DNA from: Catajapyx aquilonaris | Taxonomy: Eukaryota | Direction: 5' to 3' | DNA length: 37,407 nt | NCBI GenBank assembly: GCA_000934665.2 | Contig: KZ539533.1 | Coordinates: 1-37,407, forward strand | In this document: piece by piece, positions 1,492 to 28,280 of the stretch | How positions within the stretch are numbered: the first letter of the stretch is position 1 | How the letters are laid out: every line of letters starts with the position of its first letter | Translations under genes and position numbers: made by a program | Notes under the pieces: generated by a model | Seen by the model: only the letters and a program-made list of their open reading frames with translations | The model's database searches: none | What the model was told of the DNA's origin: nothing

Positions 1492-1854
1492 TTAAGGTTA
1501 AAACTCAATCAAACTCTTCACACACATAAACACCACAAAGGAGTAATATGACGTTTCTTCCCAGGACCTGTTATGAGGTTGAAATCAAGTAACTCAGGAC
1601 TTGTTTTTTGTTACGTATACAGATCCAACTCGACCATAGGTTCAACCCTGACTTGCTTTCTACCTGTTGTTACTCAACCCTGCAATTTAAGCAATGATTA
1701 GGTATGCAGGCCAACAACAAATTGCTGTACCATGAAGGTCAAATATTCAAGATTTGATTGCAACTCACAAGTACTCAATAAAGCTCCCATAATTCTTCTA
1801 CTACAGTAACTACACCATTATACTGTTGTAAACGAAGTTGAAAAATATACAAAC

Positions 1855-2152
1855 CAGAGGAGAAGTCAGCAATGGCAATGAGATCGATCTTAGGCAAAGG
1901 ATATGCAATCTGGAAGTAGTCCTTGTAATACGGTAGCACCTTTGTGGCTACCTCCAGGGCGAACTGGCCCTGTTCCTTCTTCCCCACTGGAGTGTACACT
2001 CGCACTTTCACTCCATCTGCTGACTGGCTCTCCACATGGTCAAAATCACCTACTACCACTGCCACAAGGTAAGTGGACATGACAGGGGTACGATCAAACT
2101 GGACAAGCCGTAAATTTGGATCAGCTGAATCAGGGCTCTCACTTTTCACAGG
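1855..2152 (-). CDS. Psa: Puromycin-sensitive aminopeptidase exon (PVKSES...DFSSG); gene continues beyond the left edge
   Basis: M1 peptidase motifs RTPVMSTYLVA and YPLPKIDLIAIADFSSG immediately before the expected GAMEN; acceptor ttctccag, donor G|gtttgt; 298 nt, phase 0 to 1. Confidence 0.95.
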
Positions 2153-3427
2153 CTGGAGAATAAAAGGGGTGGTTCTCATAAGTCTCAGCAAAATAATAAA
2201 TCACAAGCAAGTTATGGGGGAGTAAGGGAGGATGATATTACTACAGTAAAAGTGCTGAATTACTTGAAGTATGCTACATTGGGCCAGCCAACCATAAGTC
2301 AGTATCTGTTTATCAGCTAAGAAAAAAATTGTCATGCATGCATGCACAAAATAAAGAACATCAGCAAGTGATCAATACTTTCCACAGGCCATAGTTCTTA
2401 GTTAGTAATGGCAATACTCTACTTTTCAACCAGGGGAGACAATAACAATACTTCAGTCCTCCTTGTAAACCAGGATTGATTTCTAAAAACAGTGGCAAAG
2501 CAAATAAGCTCTACAGTAAACATGTCTTTCCCCAACAATCCATTCTTCAGTACTTGAACCCTGTTCCTTGCTACATAACCGCTCATGGATGTCCCTGCAT
2601 TAGAATGATCAGTAATTGCCACATAACAAGCACCAATGGTGCTGCAACTGGCAGGTGTGAAAAAGCCTGACATCTCTGCACAGAAAGTTAGTATGAAGTG
2701 TTTTCCTTTGGAGGTGAATGACACAGTTGGGAAATCCCATGACACTCTCCAATGTCATTTCACTGCTTAAAAATTGTTGTCATTGCGTCTCACATTACTG
2801 GCTATAACAGTAGATTGTGAGCCGACTCAATCAGTCAGTAGCATTTACAAGTATAAATAGGGGTTACTTGCTAAGTACAGATGCAGAGTATATATCTGCA
2901 ATCTAAGCATAATTTTTGCTACATGAGTCACAGCAAATTTAATATCAGTGAATCTGATTTAAATACCAGGTAGCAAGAGTCCCAAATATTTATTATTTTT
3001 ATTATTGACAGGGAAGTTTCCTTCACTGAAATTCCCACACATCAGATGGAGAAAACGAATCAAAGTTTTCTAAAAAAAATTGTATTATAAAATTGAAATC
3101 CTTCCAATTAACAATTTGTTAACAGTTGACAAGATAAGTATTGCAATTAGACATGCACGGACTGACTGTAAACAGAGAGAGAGGGGGGGGGGGGGGGTGA
3201 AGTACCAAAATCAACATTTGTGGCCCTGCTTGCAATTCTAGTCGATTTCAAAATTATTCAATATTATGGCCCAAAACCAAACTTACATCAGGCAAAGTCT
3301 AGGTCTGGCAGCACTACAAACTACTGTATATCCTAGTGGAGAACTGTTCCCTCCCGCCTACATCCCAGGCAGTGGCAAATATTATCAGTTCAGTCTCAAA
3401 TTGTCCATCACTTTGAGCATTACTCAC

Positions 3428-3578
3428 CATGTTGGAGAGTGTGACTTTTTCTTTAGGCACAACAAGAGCAATGTCGAAGGTTGCCTTGATGGCTGGCTCA
3501 TCCCAACACGGGAAGCACCTCCTGGCATCGGTGGCCTCGAACTGGGTCACCCCAGCAAATTTCTCCTCGCCTTGGAGG
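3428..3578 (-). CDS. Psa: Psa alternative exon B (canonical): SLQGEEKFAGVTQFEATDARRCFPCWDEPAIKATFDIALVVPKEKVTLSNM
   Basis: 151 nt; acceptor gcatcag, donor ATG|gtgagt; phase 2 to 0 fits both flanking exons; canonical TQFE..ARR.FPCWDEP motif. Confidence 0.95.
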
Positions 3579-3666
3579 CTGATGCAGGCGGGACAGAAAG
3601 ACAGAGGGAGAGGGGAGGGAGGGAGAAACCCGAGTAAGACAGATGAGTACAGATCCAAAAACTCAC

Positions 3667-3817
3667 CATGTTGGACAGAGCCAACAGGTCCTGGGGCACC
3701 ACTACTGATAGAGTGAATGCAGCCCTTAGCGCAGGCTCATCCCAGCATGGGAAAAAGCGACGGGCACTTGTGGGGCAAAGCTGCGTCACAGCACAGTGAC
3801 GAAGCTCACCATTGGTG
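3667..3817 (-). CDS. Psa: Psa alternative exon A (variant duplicate): STNGELRHCAVTQLCPTSARRFFPCWDEPALRAAFTLSVVVPQDLLALSNM
   Basis: 151 nt, same length and phase as exon B, open frame; acceptor ttttgtag, donor ATG|gtgagt; aligns to exon B without gaps. Confidence 0.88.
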
Positions 3818-4864
3818 CTACAAAATCACAGTGATTGTCACTGTAACCTTCTAACTATCTTTAACACTCAGTAAAAATCACTCAATTCTTACCACATATA
3901 GTTTAGTTGTGACATGGATTACCTGAATACTTGACATGCAGTAATCAGTGAGTGTACTATCGCCTGAATAATACAACTTTTAAAAAACCTAGATATTCCC
4001 ATAGATTCCTTCCTAAATCACCATAAAACCTATGTGGGTAGCCATACCATGTCACATCTGAGTCATTTACAGATTACAAAGTAGGCCTACTATTATCAAT
4101 TCCCATTAGTGGAATGCAACTCTTGAAATATCCTTATCATGGGTCAAAAAATTGCAATGGTGAATTGAAGACACATTCATAAACAACACAAGTTATCCTG
4201 ATATGTATCCTTATAACAAGGGGCCATACTCATGTTCCATTCAAGCTGAAGCAGAGTACATTTGAAGTGTGAACACCCCAACTGTGACAAATGTAGGGCA
4301 GACTTTACCATTTTCCCTAAAAATTCCTTATTACTGGGGTCTGTTTGTTTCTAAAATGTTCGGTGATGAAACCGGTTCCCCCTGGACCTGTGCTACACAG
4401 CTTGTTTTTAGTCAATAGAAAACTTCTCTGGCATAACAAATTCCCACACCATGTTTTTCAGAATTGAGATCACAAGAAAATCAGTAAAAATTTAACAGAT
4501 GCTCGTCTCAGGCACTTCACTTTCAAATTTCATATACCAGTAGTCATATGTATAGGCTACCAATGGAAAGGCTTTTAAGTGGGCTTCCCAACAGTCTATG
4601 TAAATCACTTACACACTTGAAGGTGACATCACAGCAGAAAGCAGATATGAGTGTCCATGAGATTTTTACCAATACAAATGTGAGCTCAATTCTGATTACG
4701 CTGTATACTCCTTTGCACACTTATTTCTGTGCTTATGACTGTTTATCATGTTGCTTTCAAAGTAGTACAACTAAGGATATTATTCAAATACTTAACGGCT
4801 TGCATTTCTACAATACTCTGCCACTGCAATGAAGCAGCTGATAAACACAGTGTTAAACACCCAC

Positions 4865-5103
4865 CTGGTGTATTTGCTGCGATAAAATCCTTTCATCTTG
4901 TCATTGAGTTCTCCAGTAAACTCAATCCGGAGCTTTCCTGTTCCAGCAGGCAAATCAGATCCAAAGTTGAACTTGGCAGTCTCATTCTCAACAGAGAGGA
5001 TAACCTGTGGCTCATACTTCTTTCCATCTGCAGCCAAGTACTCTGCACTCTTGATCTTCAAGTCAAGAGCATTCAGCAATATGAAGCTTGTTGGTTCAGC
5101 AAT
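4865..5103 (-). CDS. Psa: Psa exon (IAEPTSFILLNALDL...KMKGFYRSKYTS)
   Basis: Acceptor atttcag, donor AG|gtgggt; 239 nt, phase 0 to 2; GELNDKMKGFYRSKY matches PSA. Confidence 0.95.
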
Positions 5104-5630: not shown

Positions 5631-6115
5631 CCCTCAGACGGTGACGTGCGAAATGTTCGCTCTCCGGTGACGTGGGCACTTTTTGTGACCAAGCCATATT
5701 TTTTGTTATATCTGGCGAAATACAGCACATTCGGGCTTCACCTTTGAGACAATCATAGTGTGATTCCTTCTACGACAAATAGCGTTTAGTTTACATTTTT
5801 AGAGAAAATTGTGCGATCAGAAAAAAAATCGGAAAGAAAATCAGTCTGGGCCAACTCCCAGGGGTAGGGGGATTCCACCCCTTGGTGGCCTGGGATGCCA
5901 CCGGGAGCCGCCAGGCCCCAACTATGCATTGCCACATAATTTATTTTTTCCTGGTCGTGCTATTTGCTCACAAAATTTAAACTAAACGTCATTCATCACA
6001 GAAATAGTCAAACGAAAATGTTCTCAAAGATGAATCTCGAATGTCCTAAATTTGCAAAGTTATAGCAAAAAAAGGGTCGTTGGTCACAAAAAGTGCCCAC
6101 GTCACCGTCCGAGGG
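5631..6115. mobile_element. piggyBac-type MITE
   Basis: TTAA at 5627-5630 and 6116-6119; termini CCCTC...GAGGG; subterminal inverted repeat cggtgacgtgggcactttttgtgaccaa, with ggtgacgtg duplicated at the left end. Confidence 0.9.
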
Positions 6116-7067
6116 TTAATTACTGTACTTGTACACTAATAACATATTGATACAAAAAATTAACTTGAGATTCTGTGGTAATAAATGAATTTGTAATCTT
6201 CTACACTCTTAACTTTTTCATTTCCATTAAGTTTCCACAAATTCACTAGAACAGCACAGACATAACATTCAATAAACAGAACACAAAAAGGGAAACTTTG
6301 GGAGGTTTATAACTAGCCAATTAGGAGGGGAGGTAAGCTAGGAAAATAGCTAAGTTTCCACTGTAATGGGGTAAAACTTGATTTTGTTCATGACTGTACA
6401 TATCTGGGTACGTGCCTTTCTCAGATTTAGTTAAGTTCACACATGCATGTTCAGTCCTTAAATCAAGGGCAAAGCAAGCTATTGGTCGTTTGTGGCCCTT
6501 GCTTTGTAAGCTACAAAATAGGGATATATTGGTCGCGATGAGACTTTTTGCATCCAAGGTAATTCCGGTGGTTCAATATGGTTTCCATATCTGGGGTTTG
6601 GCTTATATTAATGAAATTTATAAAATTCAGACCTATTTTCCTGAGAATTTTTTTTGCTCTTCCTTATGCGCCTCTACTAGTTTTATCAGGCTGGAGTCCG
6701 GGGTGCAACGTCTAGAAATTAAACTGATCAAACCAACTGTAAAGCATGTAAACAAGCTATTGAATTTAACTGAGAGTTCTCTAGATTGTAGAGTCGTGCT
6801 CACACTTGTCAGTGCTATCTCACCCAATGAAAATCCGGACGACTATCAGTATAATTGGGTAGTAGGCCTACAGGTTAACTGCTTACAAAATATGGTGCGG
6901 AAACACTGAGTACAAGACCTATTGGCATTCATACCCTCCTACAAATAGTTTCTGTTCAATGTCTTGCAAGTGACAATCTTAGGATTAGCAAGCAGAACTG
7001 TTGTAGCCACTAGTCACTCCCCTATATGTAAATTGTAAATATCCTTCTTCCAGCTATCAGGCTCATA

Positions 7068-7325
7068 TCGTCGGCCGGCGATCAAAACCTCGTAACTCCA
7101 TTTTGCGCGAAAATGGACTTACGTACCTCGTAAGTCCCTTTGCACAACTTTGCAACGGTGTACATGAATTCAACATCATCCTCATGAAAGGTAAGGTTTA
7201 CGTTATGCTATACTGTAGGAATAATTGTCAGCATGAACAGAAAACATGATTTTACAAAATGTTTTTTGTCCCTCCTGTAAAATTTGGTCTTGAGGAGTTA
7301 CGAGGTTTTGATCGCCGGCCGACGA
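7068..7325. mobile_element. Small MITE with perfect TIRs nested in the LINE fragment
   Basis: 7064-7099 is the exact reverse complement of 7294-7329; flanked by TA (or ATAT) duplication. Confidence 0.88.
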
Positions 7326-7708
7326 TATGTAATTTAAGGAACAACTCCCTCCGACTTTGGTTTAAGGGTGTACAAATTGAATTCTCTTTGACTGAATCAT
7401 GTCATTTATGTAATTTGGATGTACCCTTTACTATACACCACTTACTGTTGGAGTGTAAGCAAACTTTTCATCTCAGGACGACGTACCTGAGTAACCTACT
7501 CCAAGTTCCTCCTGATAGGATGCACTGGATGTCTACCCATGTCACGAAAGACTCTGCTTTCTCCGTATCCCCCCCGGTATAGTGAAGATTTTGGACACGT
7601 GTGATTTGTGTTGATTTCTTTCATTATTGTGTCCCTGGTTATTATTAAATATATGTAGGTTGGGGCTGAGATCCCCCCTAAAGACCCACAAGGGTCACCA
7701 CATGGTAC

Positions 7709-7765
<57 letters not shown>

Positions 7766-7799
7766 TTATAATTATAATAATAATAATAATAATAATAAT
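7709..7799. repeat. (AAT)n microsatellite, probable LINE tail
   Basis: Directly visible, with a short ATT interruption. Confidence 0.95.
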
Positions 7800-9090
7800 C
7801 CCATCTAAAAGACATGCTGCATAGACATATCATAATATCAAGGTGACTTTACACCTTCCAGTTATTGTGTAACAAAGTGCAATAGCACCTTATCTGGAAG
7901 TAAAAAATGCTGATAAAAAAACACAAGATAAGTGCATGACCATGAACCAGACCAGTGGACATATCTGTTTAAAACATGGCACAACTAGAATAAACTTAAA
8001 CTCTGGTTAACCACTCATTACATTTCAGTCCCAGTGCAGAGGTGAGCTAAAATCTGCAACACAGGTATACATTCACATATATTTTGGTATTGAAAATATA
8101 TTGTTAATCCTGTTTTTTCAAAATAGCAAAATGCAGAAGTATTACTCAACTAAGTCAGCTGTGCCTGGCATGTGTCATGGAAGATGAAGGCGATGATAGC
8201 ATAGAAATACATGGTTAATAACAATCGTACATACAAGACTGAACAAAAGTTCTGTCACAGGCAAGTTTAAGCTGTATCCAGGTTTTACTGCAACTGATAA
8301 GCTCTGAGTAAGTAAATCTAATTCCCTACATTGCATAGTCAGCTATATGATTTGTGTTTTTAAGAAAATCTATTGACCCTATAAAAGTTGAATGTGATCC
8401 TGACAAAACCCAACCCATTCCATTGAGTGCATTTTGTCTTTGCGGCACATCACCTGCTATTAGTGTTGCAACAAGTTTACAAGCTAAAAATACCTCAATT
8501 TCGATACAAAATCTGCAGTGCCATGCCATGATGCTTAACTGGTATACTCTGCCACAGACGAGTGTGACTGACAACAGTGAGAGAGAGAAGAGCTGCTCTT
8601 GGTGTTTACCACTGGAGGAGACACCCACTCCAGGGCACTGCCGGCCGTCAGTATGTCAGTGGGTTGTGGCCTCAAGGGCTGGTGTTCCACAGTCCAGCTG
8701 GACAAGGCGGGCACGTCAGGGGCAGGGCAGGGTGGGAGAGGCACTGCACCGGAATGGAACCCCGTTCAGGGCAGCACCAGGCGGGTATGGAGGTTGATGA
8801 GGGGCGATAAGGGGGAGAGGGCAGCTGGCTGGGCTTGAAGAGAAGAAGAGCTGACCGTGTGGCTGTCTGGCTGGCTCGTGACTTGGAAGTTCCTCATTCC
8901 TCCCCAGCAGGCTTTGAATGATTTCAGGGACATCTAACGGCAAGAGGGGGCAAATAGCAGCACCTGCTCTCCCCCTTCCAAAGGGAGAGGGAGGGAGGTC
9001 CGAACGGAACAAACCGTGTCTGCCTGCATGCCTCGGATAACGGTACTCTCTCCCCCTCAGACCAGCCGGACATACAAGGACGCGCGCCCC

Positions 9091-13598: not shown

Positions 13599-16500
13599 TA
13601 TAAGCAGCAAATGTTGATTTTCCAGTATTCAAACAATGCATCAAAAACCCATAAATTATTAAGCGCGAATACGGCTGTAAGTCATTCCTTGTAAAATAAA
13701 CTTAAACATATGCACAGCTCTCCATCGTGGTTACTATTTAGACGAAGCTGGTGCTACACAGATATGACTTGTGGGACCCCCCTGCATAGACAATAGTAAA
13801 TTATCATCCTGCTTCCACGCACAAAGCCCACTCCATACAAGGAAATGAGGCATCCCATTTAGCCTATGAAGCCAGCAGTGCTAGTGAAACAATTACCTTG
13901 TTACATATCTCAAATGCGACGGCACGCTCCGAACACACGCTGGAATGAAGTCAATCCTCAAGCCCTGCTCTTTTTCAAACAAACGACACCTCCCGCCGAG
14001 ACGTTAATCCCACTGCAACCACCAAGGTGAACCCCCATATAATTTAATAATAATATTAATGATCCAGACTGCAATCTCCAGGCAGCACCTGCAGGCTTTT
14101 AATACGTAAGTAAATGCCCCTCACAAAAGATTGGCGCCCAGATGGCTGCCTCAGAGCACTTGCCCCCTACATTTATGGCAATATGGCCGTCATTGAGGCC
14201 ACCCTCAAACTGCGAGCACTTCCTGTTATGCAAGCCCCCCCCCCCCCAACCNCAACCATTTTTATTCAAAGAGAGCGCCCGGGGCACTAATTGTCATTAA
14301 AACGAGTGTAGTGCATTTCCCGAAAAAGTATGTCAAAATTATGAATCCGTCAACATGTTTTGACTCATGGCTATGTAAACTCGGCCTGCTTCCGAAATGC
14401 AAGGCAGCACACGGTTCCCGACCGCAATAAGTTATGCTGCAATCAATACCCCACTGCTTGTAAAATTGGTCTATTCTATTATGGTGCACAGGAGAAAGTT
14501 GGCAGTCTTGATGCATTCATCCAAGTCGCTCCAGTCGTGTAAACTGAACGTCAGCTGGTCCGTTCATTAACCAGATGCGCTCAATCTCCTAAGAAATAGA
14601 TGCCAAACACGTGACACCTCAGGCTAGTTCTGTGACGAAGCTACTCTTATAATTTTGTAAAAAAGCTCTCTGAAGCATCCCGCAGGCTTTCTAAAGTAAG
14701 CTCAAATATATTTTTCCTTGGAACATTTCCGCTTCCAAAGTTATGTACATACATGAATATCGGGGCGGGGTGCACTGACAAAATATTTTCCTTCGACTTG
14801 TTTACTTCGCAGTTCCCAACCACCGAGAGGAAAAGTCGCAAACTCTAACTGCATGTTATTTTTCACTCTCCTTTCTGAAACGTCTCCACTTAAGCACCAC
14901 TACACGAAAATGCTTCCATTTGAAGACCGCAGTAAGCCAAGTCATTTCTCCGGAAAATTCAATCTAGTCAACTGTCAAGCAGACTGACTTTTTCTCGCTT
15001 CAAATGTTAACGGGAGAAATTGTTTTGAGCTAAACCAGGTGCGAATAACGTCATTTGAGGCCTGCCCACTGGCGCACGAGCCATTCAATTTGCTAACTGG
15101 GCTTTCCATAACAGCACCCCCTTTTGTTCTAGGTAGCTTTCCATTTGTTGCGGGAGCTTGGATGCTAAGCCGCCGGGAATATGATGGTTGGAATAGGTGA
15201 AGTGACTGCCATTGCAAACTCAGGGAGTTCCCCTTGGACTTCGGTCGTACCCATAAATATTTGATTCTGCCAGTCGACAGTCGAACCGGGAAAACGCAAG
15301 CGTCGCGAGCAAACATGCGACGCTCAAAACAGAAAACACAGGAAGCGGCTGTCAAATAATAGCTGCTGCAACTGCTTTCGTAATGCATCAATGTCCAGAA
15401 TTTGCCTCGGCTTTGAAATGGAATGGAACAAATGAGAACAAACTATTTACCCTGCATTGTCAAAAAATATATCGCCTCAGAAAACGGGTTTTTAGCATAG
15501 CTCCCCGAACGCAATCATAACCCTAGACAGCTTGACATTACTGACAGCAACAAATATAACGGTAGACTAAAACTCGCTCCATTCACAACGGTTCTCATTT
15601 CAAACTCTCATAGTGTTTTTGTGTATCATTTCCAACATATCCTGTTGTGAACACAATGTACAGTACATTGCAACTAATATCCTGCAATCACTCATTATCA
15701 ACACATTTATATCATCGACATCATAGCATTTCCCTCTATAAAAGGGCCATGATTGTGGCAAAGTATGGGCCTACTTACTAATTCAACGCACCTAGTAGAC
15801 TAACCGTTTCTAAGTGGAGTGTCATGTACCATTTGGTTAAACAACGTCCCGCGGTAATTGTCCTCCTAACTCACTTAACTCATTTTTGTACTGAGACGAT
15901 CCACATTTCCCCACTTGAACTGTTACACTGTTCATCGTTAATATGGTAATTATATTCACTCCCCCACCTGCGCAGACAATCAAATTTTATGGCCTATTTA
16001 CAATCACATACAGGGTCCTAACCGGCGTCCTAAACCGGGTGGTCCTAAACCGGCTTTGCAGGACACCCCATAAAAGTATACTCACGTACCATGTCATGTA
16101 CTTCATGAACGTTGTGCATTTTTTAGTAGCCAACGTAAGCTGCTTTCCTCCCCCGTATATTTTGATCCCGACTACAGACTCCAGCTTGCGTAACAATCTG
16201 GGTGTTTCATAAATTACAGCCAACCCGCTGTTTGATCCCCGCCAGTGCATCAGATGCATCCTTGGCGTCATTTGTAATTGCTGATGAAAGGTCAATATTT
16301 GCCTCCGGGAACATCCTTTTGTGCTATGACGTCCCCTTTTTACAAACGTATATAAACCCAGCTACTACTACACTAATGCCGCGACACAATACTAGCCCAT
16401 TCGCGACAACAATAGATGCCATCTGTGATTAACAAAAATGACACCGTGCACCTGGCATGATGATTAATTTCGAGCACAATTTCTGGCAATTACGAGACGA

Positions 16501-19500: not shown

Positions 19501-20342
19501 GTCCTAGCCCAATTTCACATTATGTTCGATCCTTGTTATAGCTCTGGTATAACACTACGAATGCAGGGGGGGGGGGGGGGGCGGTCGGTGAGATTCCAGA
19601 ACGACATCAGTCTACGTCATACGCGCTTTGAAATCCGAAAGACCATTATTCAACAGCCAGTCTAGCAAAATGCCTTCATCCTGACGAACACGCAACCCAT
19701 ACACCTCTCTTGATCGGCAAAAAGTACATAGCGCAGGGGTAAATAAAAGCCGCTAAATGAAATCGATTCCCATTCGGATACACTGTACGCCAATGAATCC
19801 TTGCAGCATTCCACGAGTAGACGATATACGGTGTGATCATGCTGACCAACGTATACTGTACAGCAAAATAAGTAAGTCAGAAGCAGAACACCGCATCAAA
19901 GGTACAGGGTATTCCCACATTGTAAATCTGTACCGTACGACTTTTATGAGTTCGACCAGGCACTTCGCATGTAGGACACTAATATAATAGCATTACAACT
20001 TGAAAAATTGCCTTACAATATGTTACTAGGAATTCGTCTGGAGACACGAGTGAGGTTCCTAGCGATGTTTTAATCCATCTCTCGTTCATGATATTAACCT
20101 GCTAGCTTTCGGACGGTCAATTTTCGACACGTCCTTCCCACCTTGGCCCCCTTCAAACAATACACAACATAATTGATTTCTGATACGGCCAGTCTGAGTA
20201 GGCTATGTCAACATGAACCAGAATAATAACCAATAAAGCTGCAACCACTAGTAATGGGGGAAAAAGGCCCGACACATTCCTCAGGCGCTGAAACCCTCGT
20301 AAAGCTAAGACCTCTGGGTATATATTCACATTCTCAACTCAC

Positions 20343-20410: not shown

Positions 20411-21884
20411 CTGCAAAATGGAGGTAGAAGCAAATTGTTAATATTACATGACAATATTTGCTCTCTCCCTGCGACCAGTGATCCAATTCACTCGGATCAG
20501 AAACTCCAAATAACTCTGTTTCTCCCCTGGGCTGAGCTACAAAGCTATTGGTATTTCCAAACAAAATTACCCCCATCGACCTCGCTAGCAGGCCGGATTT
20601 CCCATTATATCCTTTCTAAAACTCGACTGGTTGAAATACCGGTAGTGACTGTCTTCGGAGAAGAGGAAGCGGAAAGGCTGAGCAGAGCAAACACGAAGAA
20701 GAACATGGCAAAGGAGAGCGGAAAAAGAGGTGGCTGATTACCATATCTGATTTAGGACACGGCATCGGGGTATAAATTAAGGATCAAGCACATATAACAT
20801 CGCTCAGGCCCGAAAATATGGAATACGCTGATCACAGGGATGATAATAAATTAAGGTGTACCATTACGTAGAGAAATATTAGGAACAGGTAGTATTAATA
20901 CAGTCATTAAACACTAATGAAGTGATCTAAAATAACAATTTTAATAGCTTATAAAATAATGTTAACAGTTGATGTGTCCCAAACCCCCACATGTTACACA
21001 ATGTAATAAACTTGCCATACATGAAATTGGAACATAACCGCTCACAGGCACTAAAACACATACGCTCCGGCACCGTCAGATGACGCTGTCTCCCGCTAAT
21101 GAGAGCATAATGTGCAATGAAAATGCGATCGGTGATTGACAAAGATCAATATTATTCTGCACATTTATACTGTTACTGCACAAGATTTTCTGTACTGTTG
21201 CGGCCGCTTTCGCACGTCGCGCAAATTTATGCCACACAATCTAACAGCGAAATCCCCGTTCGCATAAAGCCATCACTTTTAATCTATGCAGATTAAATCT
21301 TAATGAGGCTTTGGCAGACAACTAAATGTGCAATTACATTAGTTCATATTAGTGCACAATCAATGACACAATTTTGCATACTTTATTAATTATTAAAACA
21401 TTAATTTGGCGCAGCTTCGGAGTTTATCACAGACAACGTGGCAAATGCGCCATTTTAAAAATCCCCTAAGCCCAAAGGGTAGTCCATGTTGCTCTCAAAT
21501 AACGACAAAAACACGGGGGGGGGGGGGNCTTCGCTGGCTAGTTTAGCCGTCACAGGGCCATAGTTCGCACCTCCTGCTACAATATAAAGGTCAAATTTTA
21601 AAGTTCTTGTTATCAAAGCTATTAAAATTCCTGTCAAGATTTACGTGCCGTGGTTTATGACTTCCAGATGCTTGTAAACTTTAACATCCTCGCAATAAAT
21701 TGCATGTTAACTTCAGTCGAGAATTCCCCAGGTTGCAAGCTTCGTTTTCAAAAAAAAAAAACAAAAAAACAAAAAAAAAACACGTTCTCTCCTGGTTAGA
21801 TCGGTGGAAAAACTCATTTGTTTGCACAAGAAACTCACAGAGGTAAACTATTAGACTGGAAAATATAAAGGGGGGTATACTCAC

Positions 21885-23812: not shown

Positions 23813-24774
23813 TATTTATTCTTGAACGTATTCTTTGTTGTTGTTGTTGAGAGGCCTTCCTTGCTAAAAATTCAGAGTTATTGTTCCCTTGTCAATTCCA
23901 ATGCTGGAACTTCCTTTTACGTTAATTAGATCTTAATGCAAAGGAGGGTATCACCAAGAGACTAATGACGAAGTACTTTCCACCTGGCTTTCTCTTATAT
24001 CGAACAAAGTGTCAACCTGTGCCGTATTTCGGGGGAACTCGTATGGCAAGTGAAGAAATTTTAATTTCACTTTGGCCTGCTAATGGAATGGCTGCCATAA
24101 AGTGCTTTTGAATATCCATATGTCTTATGGAGGCAATGGGTGGAATTTTCGTCGTACTACTAGTTACTTTTAACTTAGCAGTACCATTGCATGACACTGG
24201 TACTGCTAAGTTAAAGGTAACTATTAGTATATAAGACGAAAATTCCACCGAATGACTACTACCAAGCTACTACTAGTACATCGTACTATTTAGACTGATA
24301 ATTTTTAAATAATAAAACATGCGCCATTTCGCACTCACTCCAGTGTAATGATTTCGTGGAATTCGCACTGTACAGCTGAGGCTGGTGGGATACTGTACAT
24401 GATGTGAGCCATCAAAAGGTACCTCATGACGATCAATTTACATCACCATTACATGCAGGTACCATTGAATTATGGAACGTTTCGCATTTCGTATCGGATC
24501 ACAATGAAATTAACACCGCCCCTTGGTACACCTCTTTGTTGTAAGATTTACATATAAATTTCGATGCTACGATGTTTCACAACGATCCGATAACGAATAC
24601 GAACTGCACACACAGTATTTTTATGTCGATCATACGCCCTTGTCTTGTACACTACACAGGGCTCTCTAACATGGTAACTTCTGTAGGTGAGGGTGGTCTA
24701 AAAGCACAAACACAAAACGCACAACCCGCAGAAACTAAAATAAGCATATACGAGTTGGTATATGCCAGGAGTAC

Positions 24775-27900: not shown

Positions 27901-28280
27901 GCAATAGAATACTTATCCGCATGCAGAACGTAGGACATGTTTGCCTGCTTGTACAGACCTACACCACGTTTCCTGAAAGTCTCTGCGAGATCCTCAGTCC
28001 AATTCCCAAGTTGGCCATAGTTACTGAACCTATCCTAATGACTAATGCATAAGGCATTTACCAGTAGGATGCACAAATACGAAGTTTCCTCTCGAAAAAG
28101 CACTGCCCCTCTTTCTTACTCTTTTGGCACAAAATGTATGTTAGGGGGTCATGCCATCATGGTCCTGTCGGACCTTTCTGTACCATACCGCAGACTTGGT
28201 GGCGTTGCGAGGCGGGGCAGGGGCATAAGTCGTAAAGAGCGGGGAGCAAGTGCGCCGCAGGCGAAATGGGGGGGGGGGGG

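Follow-up and report, generated by a model that had tools for sequence, protein, structure and literature searches.

The window, which is the whole 37,407-nt stretch of Catajapyx aquilonaris DNA analysed here, carries on its minus strand the gene for a puromycin-sensitive aminopeptidase (PSA) of the M1 family. The assignment comes from the open reading frames and from Pfam, which finds Peptidase_M1_N and Peptidase_M1 in the pieces of the gene. In order of transcription, the open frames comprise an exon 1 that starts MPESKK…, an exon 2, two tandem homologous exons (called A and B below) and the next exon. The parts of the gene around the two homologous exons are laid out as follows:

4865..5103, minus strand: exon 2 of PSA, with its donor at 4865
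3667..3817, minus strand: exon A, 151 nt, the alternative homologous exon (…TQLCPTSARRFFPCWDEP…), of an A-type that is conserved in other animals
3579..3666, minus strand: the A-B intron, 88 nt
3428..3578, minus strand: exon B, 151 nt, the canonical PSA exon (…TQFEATDARRCFPCWDEP…)
about 1853..2152, minus strand: the next constitutive exon (PVKSES…DFSSG), with approximate limits taken from its open frame

The identity of exon B to insect PSA proteins reaches 92%, and the exon aligns to solved structures of human PSA; the exon after it is about 80-84% identical to insect PSAs among the proteins compared. The peptides of exons A and B share 26 of 49 aligned residues (53%, E 2e-20), and both match positions 111-159 of Peptidase_M1_N. 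The two exons have the same phase and the same length, and at 151 nt each, an mRNA that used both of them or neither would lose the reading frame. Further, in run X5 (from the same organism, its kind not on record), one contig with a depth of 2 joins position 4865 to position 3578. The stretch that it skips has GT..AG ends, making it exon 2 spliced to exon B with exon A left out, and a loose contig end at 5270 matches the start of exon 2. Exon A is uncovered by the spliced contigs of this run, which has no bearing either way on its expression. The first-pass annotation had read A and B as mutually exclusive exons and exon B as used without exon A. The second claim is borne out by the exon 2-exon B junction in the one X5 contig; the first agrees with the shared length and phase, the 53% peptide identity, the frame rule and the isoforms of other insects described below. 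As far as sequence can tell, the mutual exclusion of the homologous exons A and B is genuine.

The pair is found well beyond this locus. Scanned against metagenomes, the exon B peptide gave 80 loci, of which the best is 81% identical over the exon peptide and none comes from a close relative. According to tblastn on these 80 loci, a diverged copy of the exon lies directly upstream of the canonical copy in five (L001, L002, L003, L004 and L042). L001, L002 and L003 are identical sequences, L004 is a close relative of L001, and L042 is unrelated in sequence to both, so that L001, L004 and L042 stand for three sequences from two independent lineages. In each of the three, the A-type exon sits immediately upstream of the B-type exon, separated from it by an intron of 42 nt:

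L001, 1538-1706: A-type exon; 1707-1748: A-B intron, 42 nt
L004, 694-862: A-type exon; 863-904: A-B intron, 42 nt
L042, 8333-8480: A-type exon; 8481-8522: A-B intron, 42 nt

The A-type exons share the signature LC[PT]T[SH]AR, which reads QLCPTSAR in the window, QLCTTHAR in L001 and L004, and YLCPTSAR in L042; the QFEATDAR of the B-type exon is thereby replaced by QLC[PT]T[SH]AR. A search among longer proteins with the exon A peptide alone gave generic M1 matches only. A profile built from the four A-type peptides and run against 1.84 billion representatives found further A-type exons, and some of its matches are open frames in which an A-type exon, a short intron and a B-type exon are read through in turn. 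Moreover, RefSeq annotates the two forms as separate isoforms, X1 being A-type and X2 being B-type, in Periplaneta americana, Bacillus rossius, Anabrus simplex and several Schistocerca species; four insect genera (cockroach, stick insect, katydid and locusts) thus have annotated isoforms with A alone and with B alone. This recurrence in other loci and in RefSeq isoforms rules out a decaying duplicate as the explanation of exon A, which is, by comparison across taxa, evidently the alternative member of an ancient, conserved pair.

Related exons of other kinds were seen in the same searches. Intermediate exons reading QFCPTDAR or QFCSTDAR (L026 7-150; P0207; L029) carry the Glu-to-Cys change and otherwise keep the B-type motif. 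The same exon is duplicated in other organisms as well (P0146 and P0168, both on contigs of 5298 nt; P0145; L021 1283-1429 and 5362-5511), and these duplications include a recent duplicate that takes in the downstream intron, a partial in-frame copy and two copies that lie 4 kb apart. In a gene model of Timema shepardi (P0025, 1020 aa), residues ~236-300 join the A-type exon without a break to part of the B-type one (…LSNMFEATDARR…), which looks like an annotation artefact that merges both alternative exons.

The A-B intron is short and has few adenines. Mutually exclusive exons that are kept apart by steric hindrance are known from exons 2 and 3 of alpha-tropomyosin, where the branch point is distant. 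In the vertebrate OGDH gene, according to the available part of the paper (PMC7969005), exons 4a and 4b are made exclusive by branch points that lie 25-41 nt from the 5′ splice site, with a steric threshold of about 50 nt and very long pyrimidine tracts after the branch points. In the window, adenines occur in the A-B intron only at intron positions 4, 13, 19, 23, 32, 84 and 87. Its only matches to yUnAy are CUCAU (A23, window position 3644) and CUUAC (A32, window position 3635), and these are followed by an adenine-free tract of 51 nt (3634-3584) that is 86% pyrimidine. The only plausible branch adenines would therefore lie 23-32 nt from the exon A donor. At this distance, below the threshold of about 50 nt, a spliceosome assembled on the exon A donor would block the exon B branch point. 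At sequence level, the intron thus has both hallmarks of the steric class, namely a branch distance under about 50 nt (or an intron too short to splice) and a long pyrimidine tract. The likeness to OGDH 4a/4b extends to the short intron between alternative exons and to the very long pyrimidine tract that follows, and the candidate branch distance of 23-32 nt, taken here from the distribution of adenines, compares with 25-41 nt in OGDH (PMC7969005, available part). The gene and the phylum differ. Further, the length of the A-B intron is constrained across taxa, as in steric-hindrance pairs: it is 42 nt in all three of the other sequences, from two unrelated lineages, a length constraint that fits a steric block. 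Such a block, together with the frame rule, would suffice for exclusivity.

A second feature of the A-B intron in the window is its pairing with the intron downstream of exon B. The elements involved are:

3581..3593, minus strand: 5′ arm (UCCCGCCUGCAUC), the last 13 nt of the polypyrimidine tract, ending 1 nt before the exon B acceptor AG
3580-3579, minus strand: the exon B acceptor AG
3352..3364, minus strand: 3′ arm (GAUGUAGGCGGGA), 63 nt downstream of exon B, inside the G-rich element GGGAUGUAGGCGGGAGGGAACAG
3594..3604, minus strand: extension of the 5′ side, of which 3597-3595 and 3604-3601 pair with 3350-3344
3344..3351, minus strand: extension of the 3′ side, in the GGGAACA region

The minus-strand sequence is TCCCGCCTGCATC at 3593-3581 and GATGTAGGCGGGA at 3364-3352, and the two form 13 contiguous pairs with a single G-U. 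The helix reaches its extension past a 1×1 mismatch and a 3-nt bulge, for a total of about 20 bp; the duplex energy is −24.7 kcal/mol for the 13 bp and −34.7 kcal/mol with the extension. The first-pass annotation had described this stem, its continuation with bulges into the pyrimidine tract and one non-Watson-Crick pair that is G-U on the transcribed strand only. The sequence and a script reproduce all three: the coordinates of the arms agree, the extension accounts for the −34.7 kcal/mol, and the sole wobble, G3585-U3360, becomes a C-A mismatch on the plus strand. That the G-U favours the transcribed strand is weak evidence, since one transition difference gives this outcome at even odds. 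Each of the introns flanking exon B holds one arm on the transcribed strand, and one of the arms covers a splice signal, as in stems that loop out an exon or mask its splice site.

These properties raise the question of whether the pairing is more than chance. When the 400 nt after exon B were shuffled with dinucleotides preserved, one shuffle in 300 reached the observed duplex energy, and none of 100 block shuffles of both introns reached −24.7 kcal/mol, the minimum of that null being −20.9. When the 47-nt acceptor region is compared with the whole minus strand of the 37.4-kb window, the stem is the only helix of at least 13 bp with at most one G-U; the plus strand, as a control, contains one such helix, the region's own complement aside. 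Across the minus strand as a whole there are 12 stems of the same class (loops of 10-400 nt), mostly inside transposon-like inverted repeats; our arithmetic gives a chance expectation of about two such stems per strand. If interior loops are allowed, 28 of 179 real 400-nt segments pair with the tract equally well by energy because the tract is rich in C and U, a count that includes two plus-strand segments holding the query's own complement. The core of the stem (GCCUGCAUC with GAUGUAGGC) is not of low complexity, and no second high-complexity partner for the arms occurs on the transcribed strand of the window. Overall, the stem appears locally unlikely to be a chance product, with an estimated probability of about 0.01-0.03 when several interesting placements are allowed for.

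Other repeats occur in the window. At 5665-6107, 7064-7329, 345-712, 1066-1479 and 24139-24249 lie inverted repeats, perfect or nearly so, whose arms measure 14-36 bp and whose loops measure 11-400 nt; they resemble miniature transposons, and two of them sit just upstream of the first exon of PSA. Runs of G or C, 13-19 nt long, are found at 3172-3202 (plus strand), 14235-14248, 19563-19581, 21513-21527 and 28266-28280, and the composition of these homopolymer runs lets them pair with the pyrimidine tract of the A-B intron, which is C-rich. A long trinucleotide microsatellite at about 7640-7830 gives rise to poly-Y, poly-I, poly-N and poly-L open frames, and the window holds 230 N.

How often the stem would form depends on the length of RNA that is folded. 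The first-pass annotation had suggested folding 3330-3670 as a check, and in that frame the stem is part of the minimum free energy (MFE) structure with a probability of about 1.0; this does not carry over to wider frames, where the probability falls to 0.44 (3300-3700), 0.27 (3200-3850), 0.25 (3000-4000), 0.21 (2700-4300) and 0.17 (2200-4870). The stem is out of the MFE in all five of these wider frames, and hence in five of the six contexts. The 341-nt region has a z-score of −0.38, indicating that it is not unusually structured overall and that one helix stands out from it. Two local hairpins compete for the arms:

3564..3572, minus strand: the start of exon B (AGGCGAGGA), which pairs with 3593-3586 of the 5′ arm
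3366..3372, minus strand: the partner that pairs with 3360-3354 of the 3′ arm

According to the folding model, the hairpin between 3593-3586 and 3572-3564 would form first during transcription, and it would also enclose the AG.

The loci with the same exon pair provide a comparison, at the distance of taxa whose exon B peptides are 71-81% identical. When the A-B intron is paired with the 400 nt after exon B, equally good pairing is obtained from a fraction of 0.54 of the shuffles in L001, 0.78 in L004 and 0.94 in L042. Contiguous helices were also sought in these loci by taking the three flanking introns two at a time, and none of nine comparisons beats its null (p 0.18-0.90). A 10-bp helix over the exon A acceptor of L004 (TGGGATGCAG with TTGCATCCCA) was considered and set aside as chance, having p 0.18 and an A-C mismatch in L001. 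In the window itself, the pairing of the A-B intron with the downstream intron is the only one to stand out; the intron upstream of exon A forms no helix above the null with either the A-B intron or the downstream intron (p 0.37 and 0.31). A docking and selector scheme of the Dscam type is rejected on this account, there being no partner element beside exon A. A further search used the open frame 3317-3736, which spans the A-B intron, exon B and the 3′ arm; among the 120 matches listed, the best alignment covered at most 74% of the query, and in the 12 of these that were inspected, the exon alone matched and the flanks were unlike the query. By the comparison of these loci, the stem appears not to be part of the conserved mechanism. 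Its absence elsewhere does not show that it is inert here: with taxa this distant, and with a 42-nt intron that leaves little room for an arm, a lineage-specific function in the window would be compatible with these results.

On balance, though by a modest degree of confidence, we consider the stem a lineage-specific by-product or at most a weak modulator, with exclusivity enforced by steric hindrance and the frame rule. Exclusivity would then follow from an architecture that is common to other animals, consisting of homologous 151-nt exons and an intervening intron that could not be spliced on its own. The stem itself would most likely be a by-product of a C-rich pyrimidine tract that happens to face a G-rich intronic element. 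Where it does form, it would bury the exon B polypyrimidine tract over its last 13 nt up to the AG and loop out exon B, hindering recognition of the AG and of the distal pyrimidine tract and favouring the skipping of exon B. As a weak modulator, it would at most lower the use of the exon B acceptor, in equilibrium with the two local hairpins. Branch-point use, a steric block and an influence of the stem on splicing, if any, are what we infer from these sequences. Several properties of the stem speak against its being a by-product: it is placed right at the AG, frames a single exon precisely, can be extended to about 20 bp and is a local outlier.

The same properties are what would be expected of a selected RNA switch, a possibility that we take seriously but consider doubtful. 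While it is formed, the stem would mask the exon B acceptor and loop out exon B, and the exon A donor would be joined to the next exon; once it opens, exon B, having the stronger acceptor, would win and exon A would be skipped. Steric hindrance would then do no more than prevent the joining of A to B, and the stem would set the A/B ratio. In addition to the local rarity of the pairing (1/300 and 0/100 shuffles), its placement at the AG, the exact bracketing of exon B and the extension, this reading can draw on a G-U that is tolerated on the transcribed strand only and on a predicted occupancy that is intermediate (0.2-0.4) and shared with competing hairpins, as a switch would show. It also has precedents, since loop-out by pairing of the flanking introns and masking of pyrimidine tracts are both treated in the available part of a review (PMC11802352). 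Set against these points, no analogous pairing is seen in three sequences from two independent lineages that have the same exon pair, exon A lacks a partner element, the stem is in the MFE only in the frame 3330-3670, and the start of exon B can pair with the 5′ arm before the stem forms. Moreover, the C-rich tract and the G-rich element in which the arms are found may each bind proteins, and this would make complementarity between them likelier. The first-pass annotation had proposed that the stem governs the choice between A and B, with the formed stem giving exon A and the open stem exon B. That proposal is not upheld, in view of the three sequences that show no comparable pairing, the missing selector at exon A, the competition from local hairpins and a simpler explanation by steric hindrance.

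The switch and the steric block could also have been acquired in succession. In this scenario, which we regard as speculative, the A-B intron of this lineage grew from 42 to 88 nt and gained a stem that acts as a switch atop an ancient steric block, toggling, through masking of the exon B acceptor, between the canonical form of the aminopeptidase, with its QFE glutamate, and the conserved QLC variant. The combination of a steric block with RNA structure in a two-exon cluster is what such a scenario needs, and it is matched, to go by the title of the work, by Dscam exon 17, where steric hindrance and RNA secondary structures are said to act together (Yue et al. 2013, reportedly).

A quite different reading holds that the two arms bind proteins independently, one as a G-run intronic enhancer downstream of the exon B donor and the other as a C-rich tract, that they act without pairing and that their complementarity is incidental. 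G-runs are bound as intronic enhancers and C-rich tracts by pyrimidine-tract proteins. Consistent with this, the 3′ arm belongs to GGG-AUGUAGGC-GGG-A-GGG, the 5′ arm to the 51-nt tract that is 86% pyrimidine, and the G-rich element pairs with other registers of the tract as well. Further, the 8-mer GGGATGTA follows the exon B donor at a distance of 61 nt in the window (3359-3366, minus strand), where it overlaps the 3′ arm, and likewise in L001 (1961-1968). In L004, the 8-mer stands at a different offset owing to an inserted hairpin-like element, and our arithmetic gives a chance expectation for a shared 8-mer of about 0.3 at any offset and of about 0.002-0.01 at the same offset for a match that was chosen post hoc; the 8-mer may be a conserved intronic element or may be chance. 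Taken as a full account of the pairing, we find this reading improbable. Repeats known to suffice for circularisation are longer than 13-20 bp. An inverted repeat that draws the donor and acceptor of exon B together, so that the exon is back-spliced as a circular RNA of 151 nt, is very unlikely indeed: the arms lie close to a single exon (1 nt and 63 nt from its splice sites) and exon loop-out is linked with back-splicing in the available part of the review (PMC11802352), but the pyrimidine tract on which the acceptor depends lies under the 5′ arm, and no back-splice is found among the joints of the contigs from one small run (X5).

The reading that we favour, in which steric hindrance and the frame rule enforce exclusivity and the stem is a by-product or a weak modulator, places the locus between several known systems. 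Both kinds of arrangement are known, exon pairs kept apart by steric hindrance as well as stems by which an exon is looped out or a 3′ splice site is masked. In the systems covered by the available part of PMC11802352, duplexes between flanking introns skip the enclosed exon, and a structure in F8 intron 15 sequesters the pyrimidine tract; the arms at the PSA locus are placed in the same way, the end of the tract by the AG is covered, and skipping of the enclosed exon is predicted. The stem here differs from those systems in being only 13 bp long (about 20 with bulges) and in lying inside a pair with a putative steric mechanism of its own. Relative to OGDH 4a/4b, the stem over the distal tract is an extra feature, undescribed for that gene in the available part of PMC7969005. 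The Dscam1 clusters, 14-3-3zeta and Mhc resemble the PSA locus in having intronic pairing within mutually exclusive exons, here in an arthropod-like gene. However, there is no docking site with one selector per exon at the PSA locus, and whereas pairing activates the chosen exon in Dscam1, 14-3-3zeta and Mhc, here it would silence exon B. If the stem works, the locus would be a small case of RNA structure and steric hindrance combined in a two-exon cluster outside Dscam and 14-3-3.

The conserved A/B pair may matter more than the stem. By motif, the QFE of the B-type exon would correspond to Q178-F179-E180 of human PSA, and the available part of a preprint states that Glu180 of the human enzyme, together with Glu319, probably binds the substrate's N-terminus (bioRxiv 10.1101/2023.05.30.542994). 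The A-type exon replaces this glutamate of QFE with cysteine (QLC), and a QLC variant that lacks it may have an altered or lost exopeptidase specificity. The A and B isoforms of PSA are already in the RefSeq annotation; a full-text search for PSA with mutually exclusive, judged by title and abstract, found no paper on the pair among those listed. Since the pair exchanges the segment with one of the two glutamates that probably hold the substrate N-terminus, it points to a second, functionally distinct PSA isoform that has been kept across insects.
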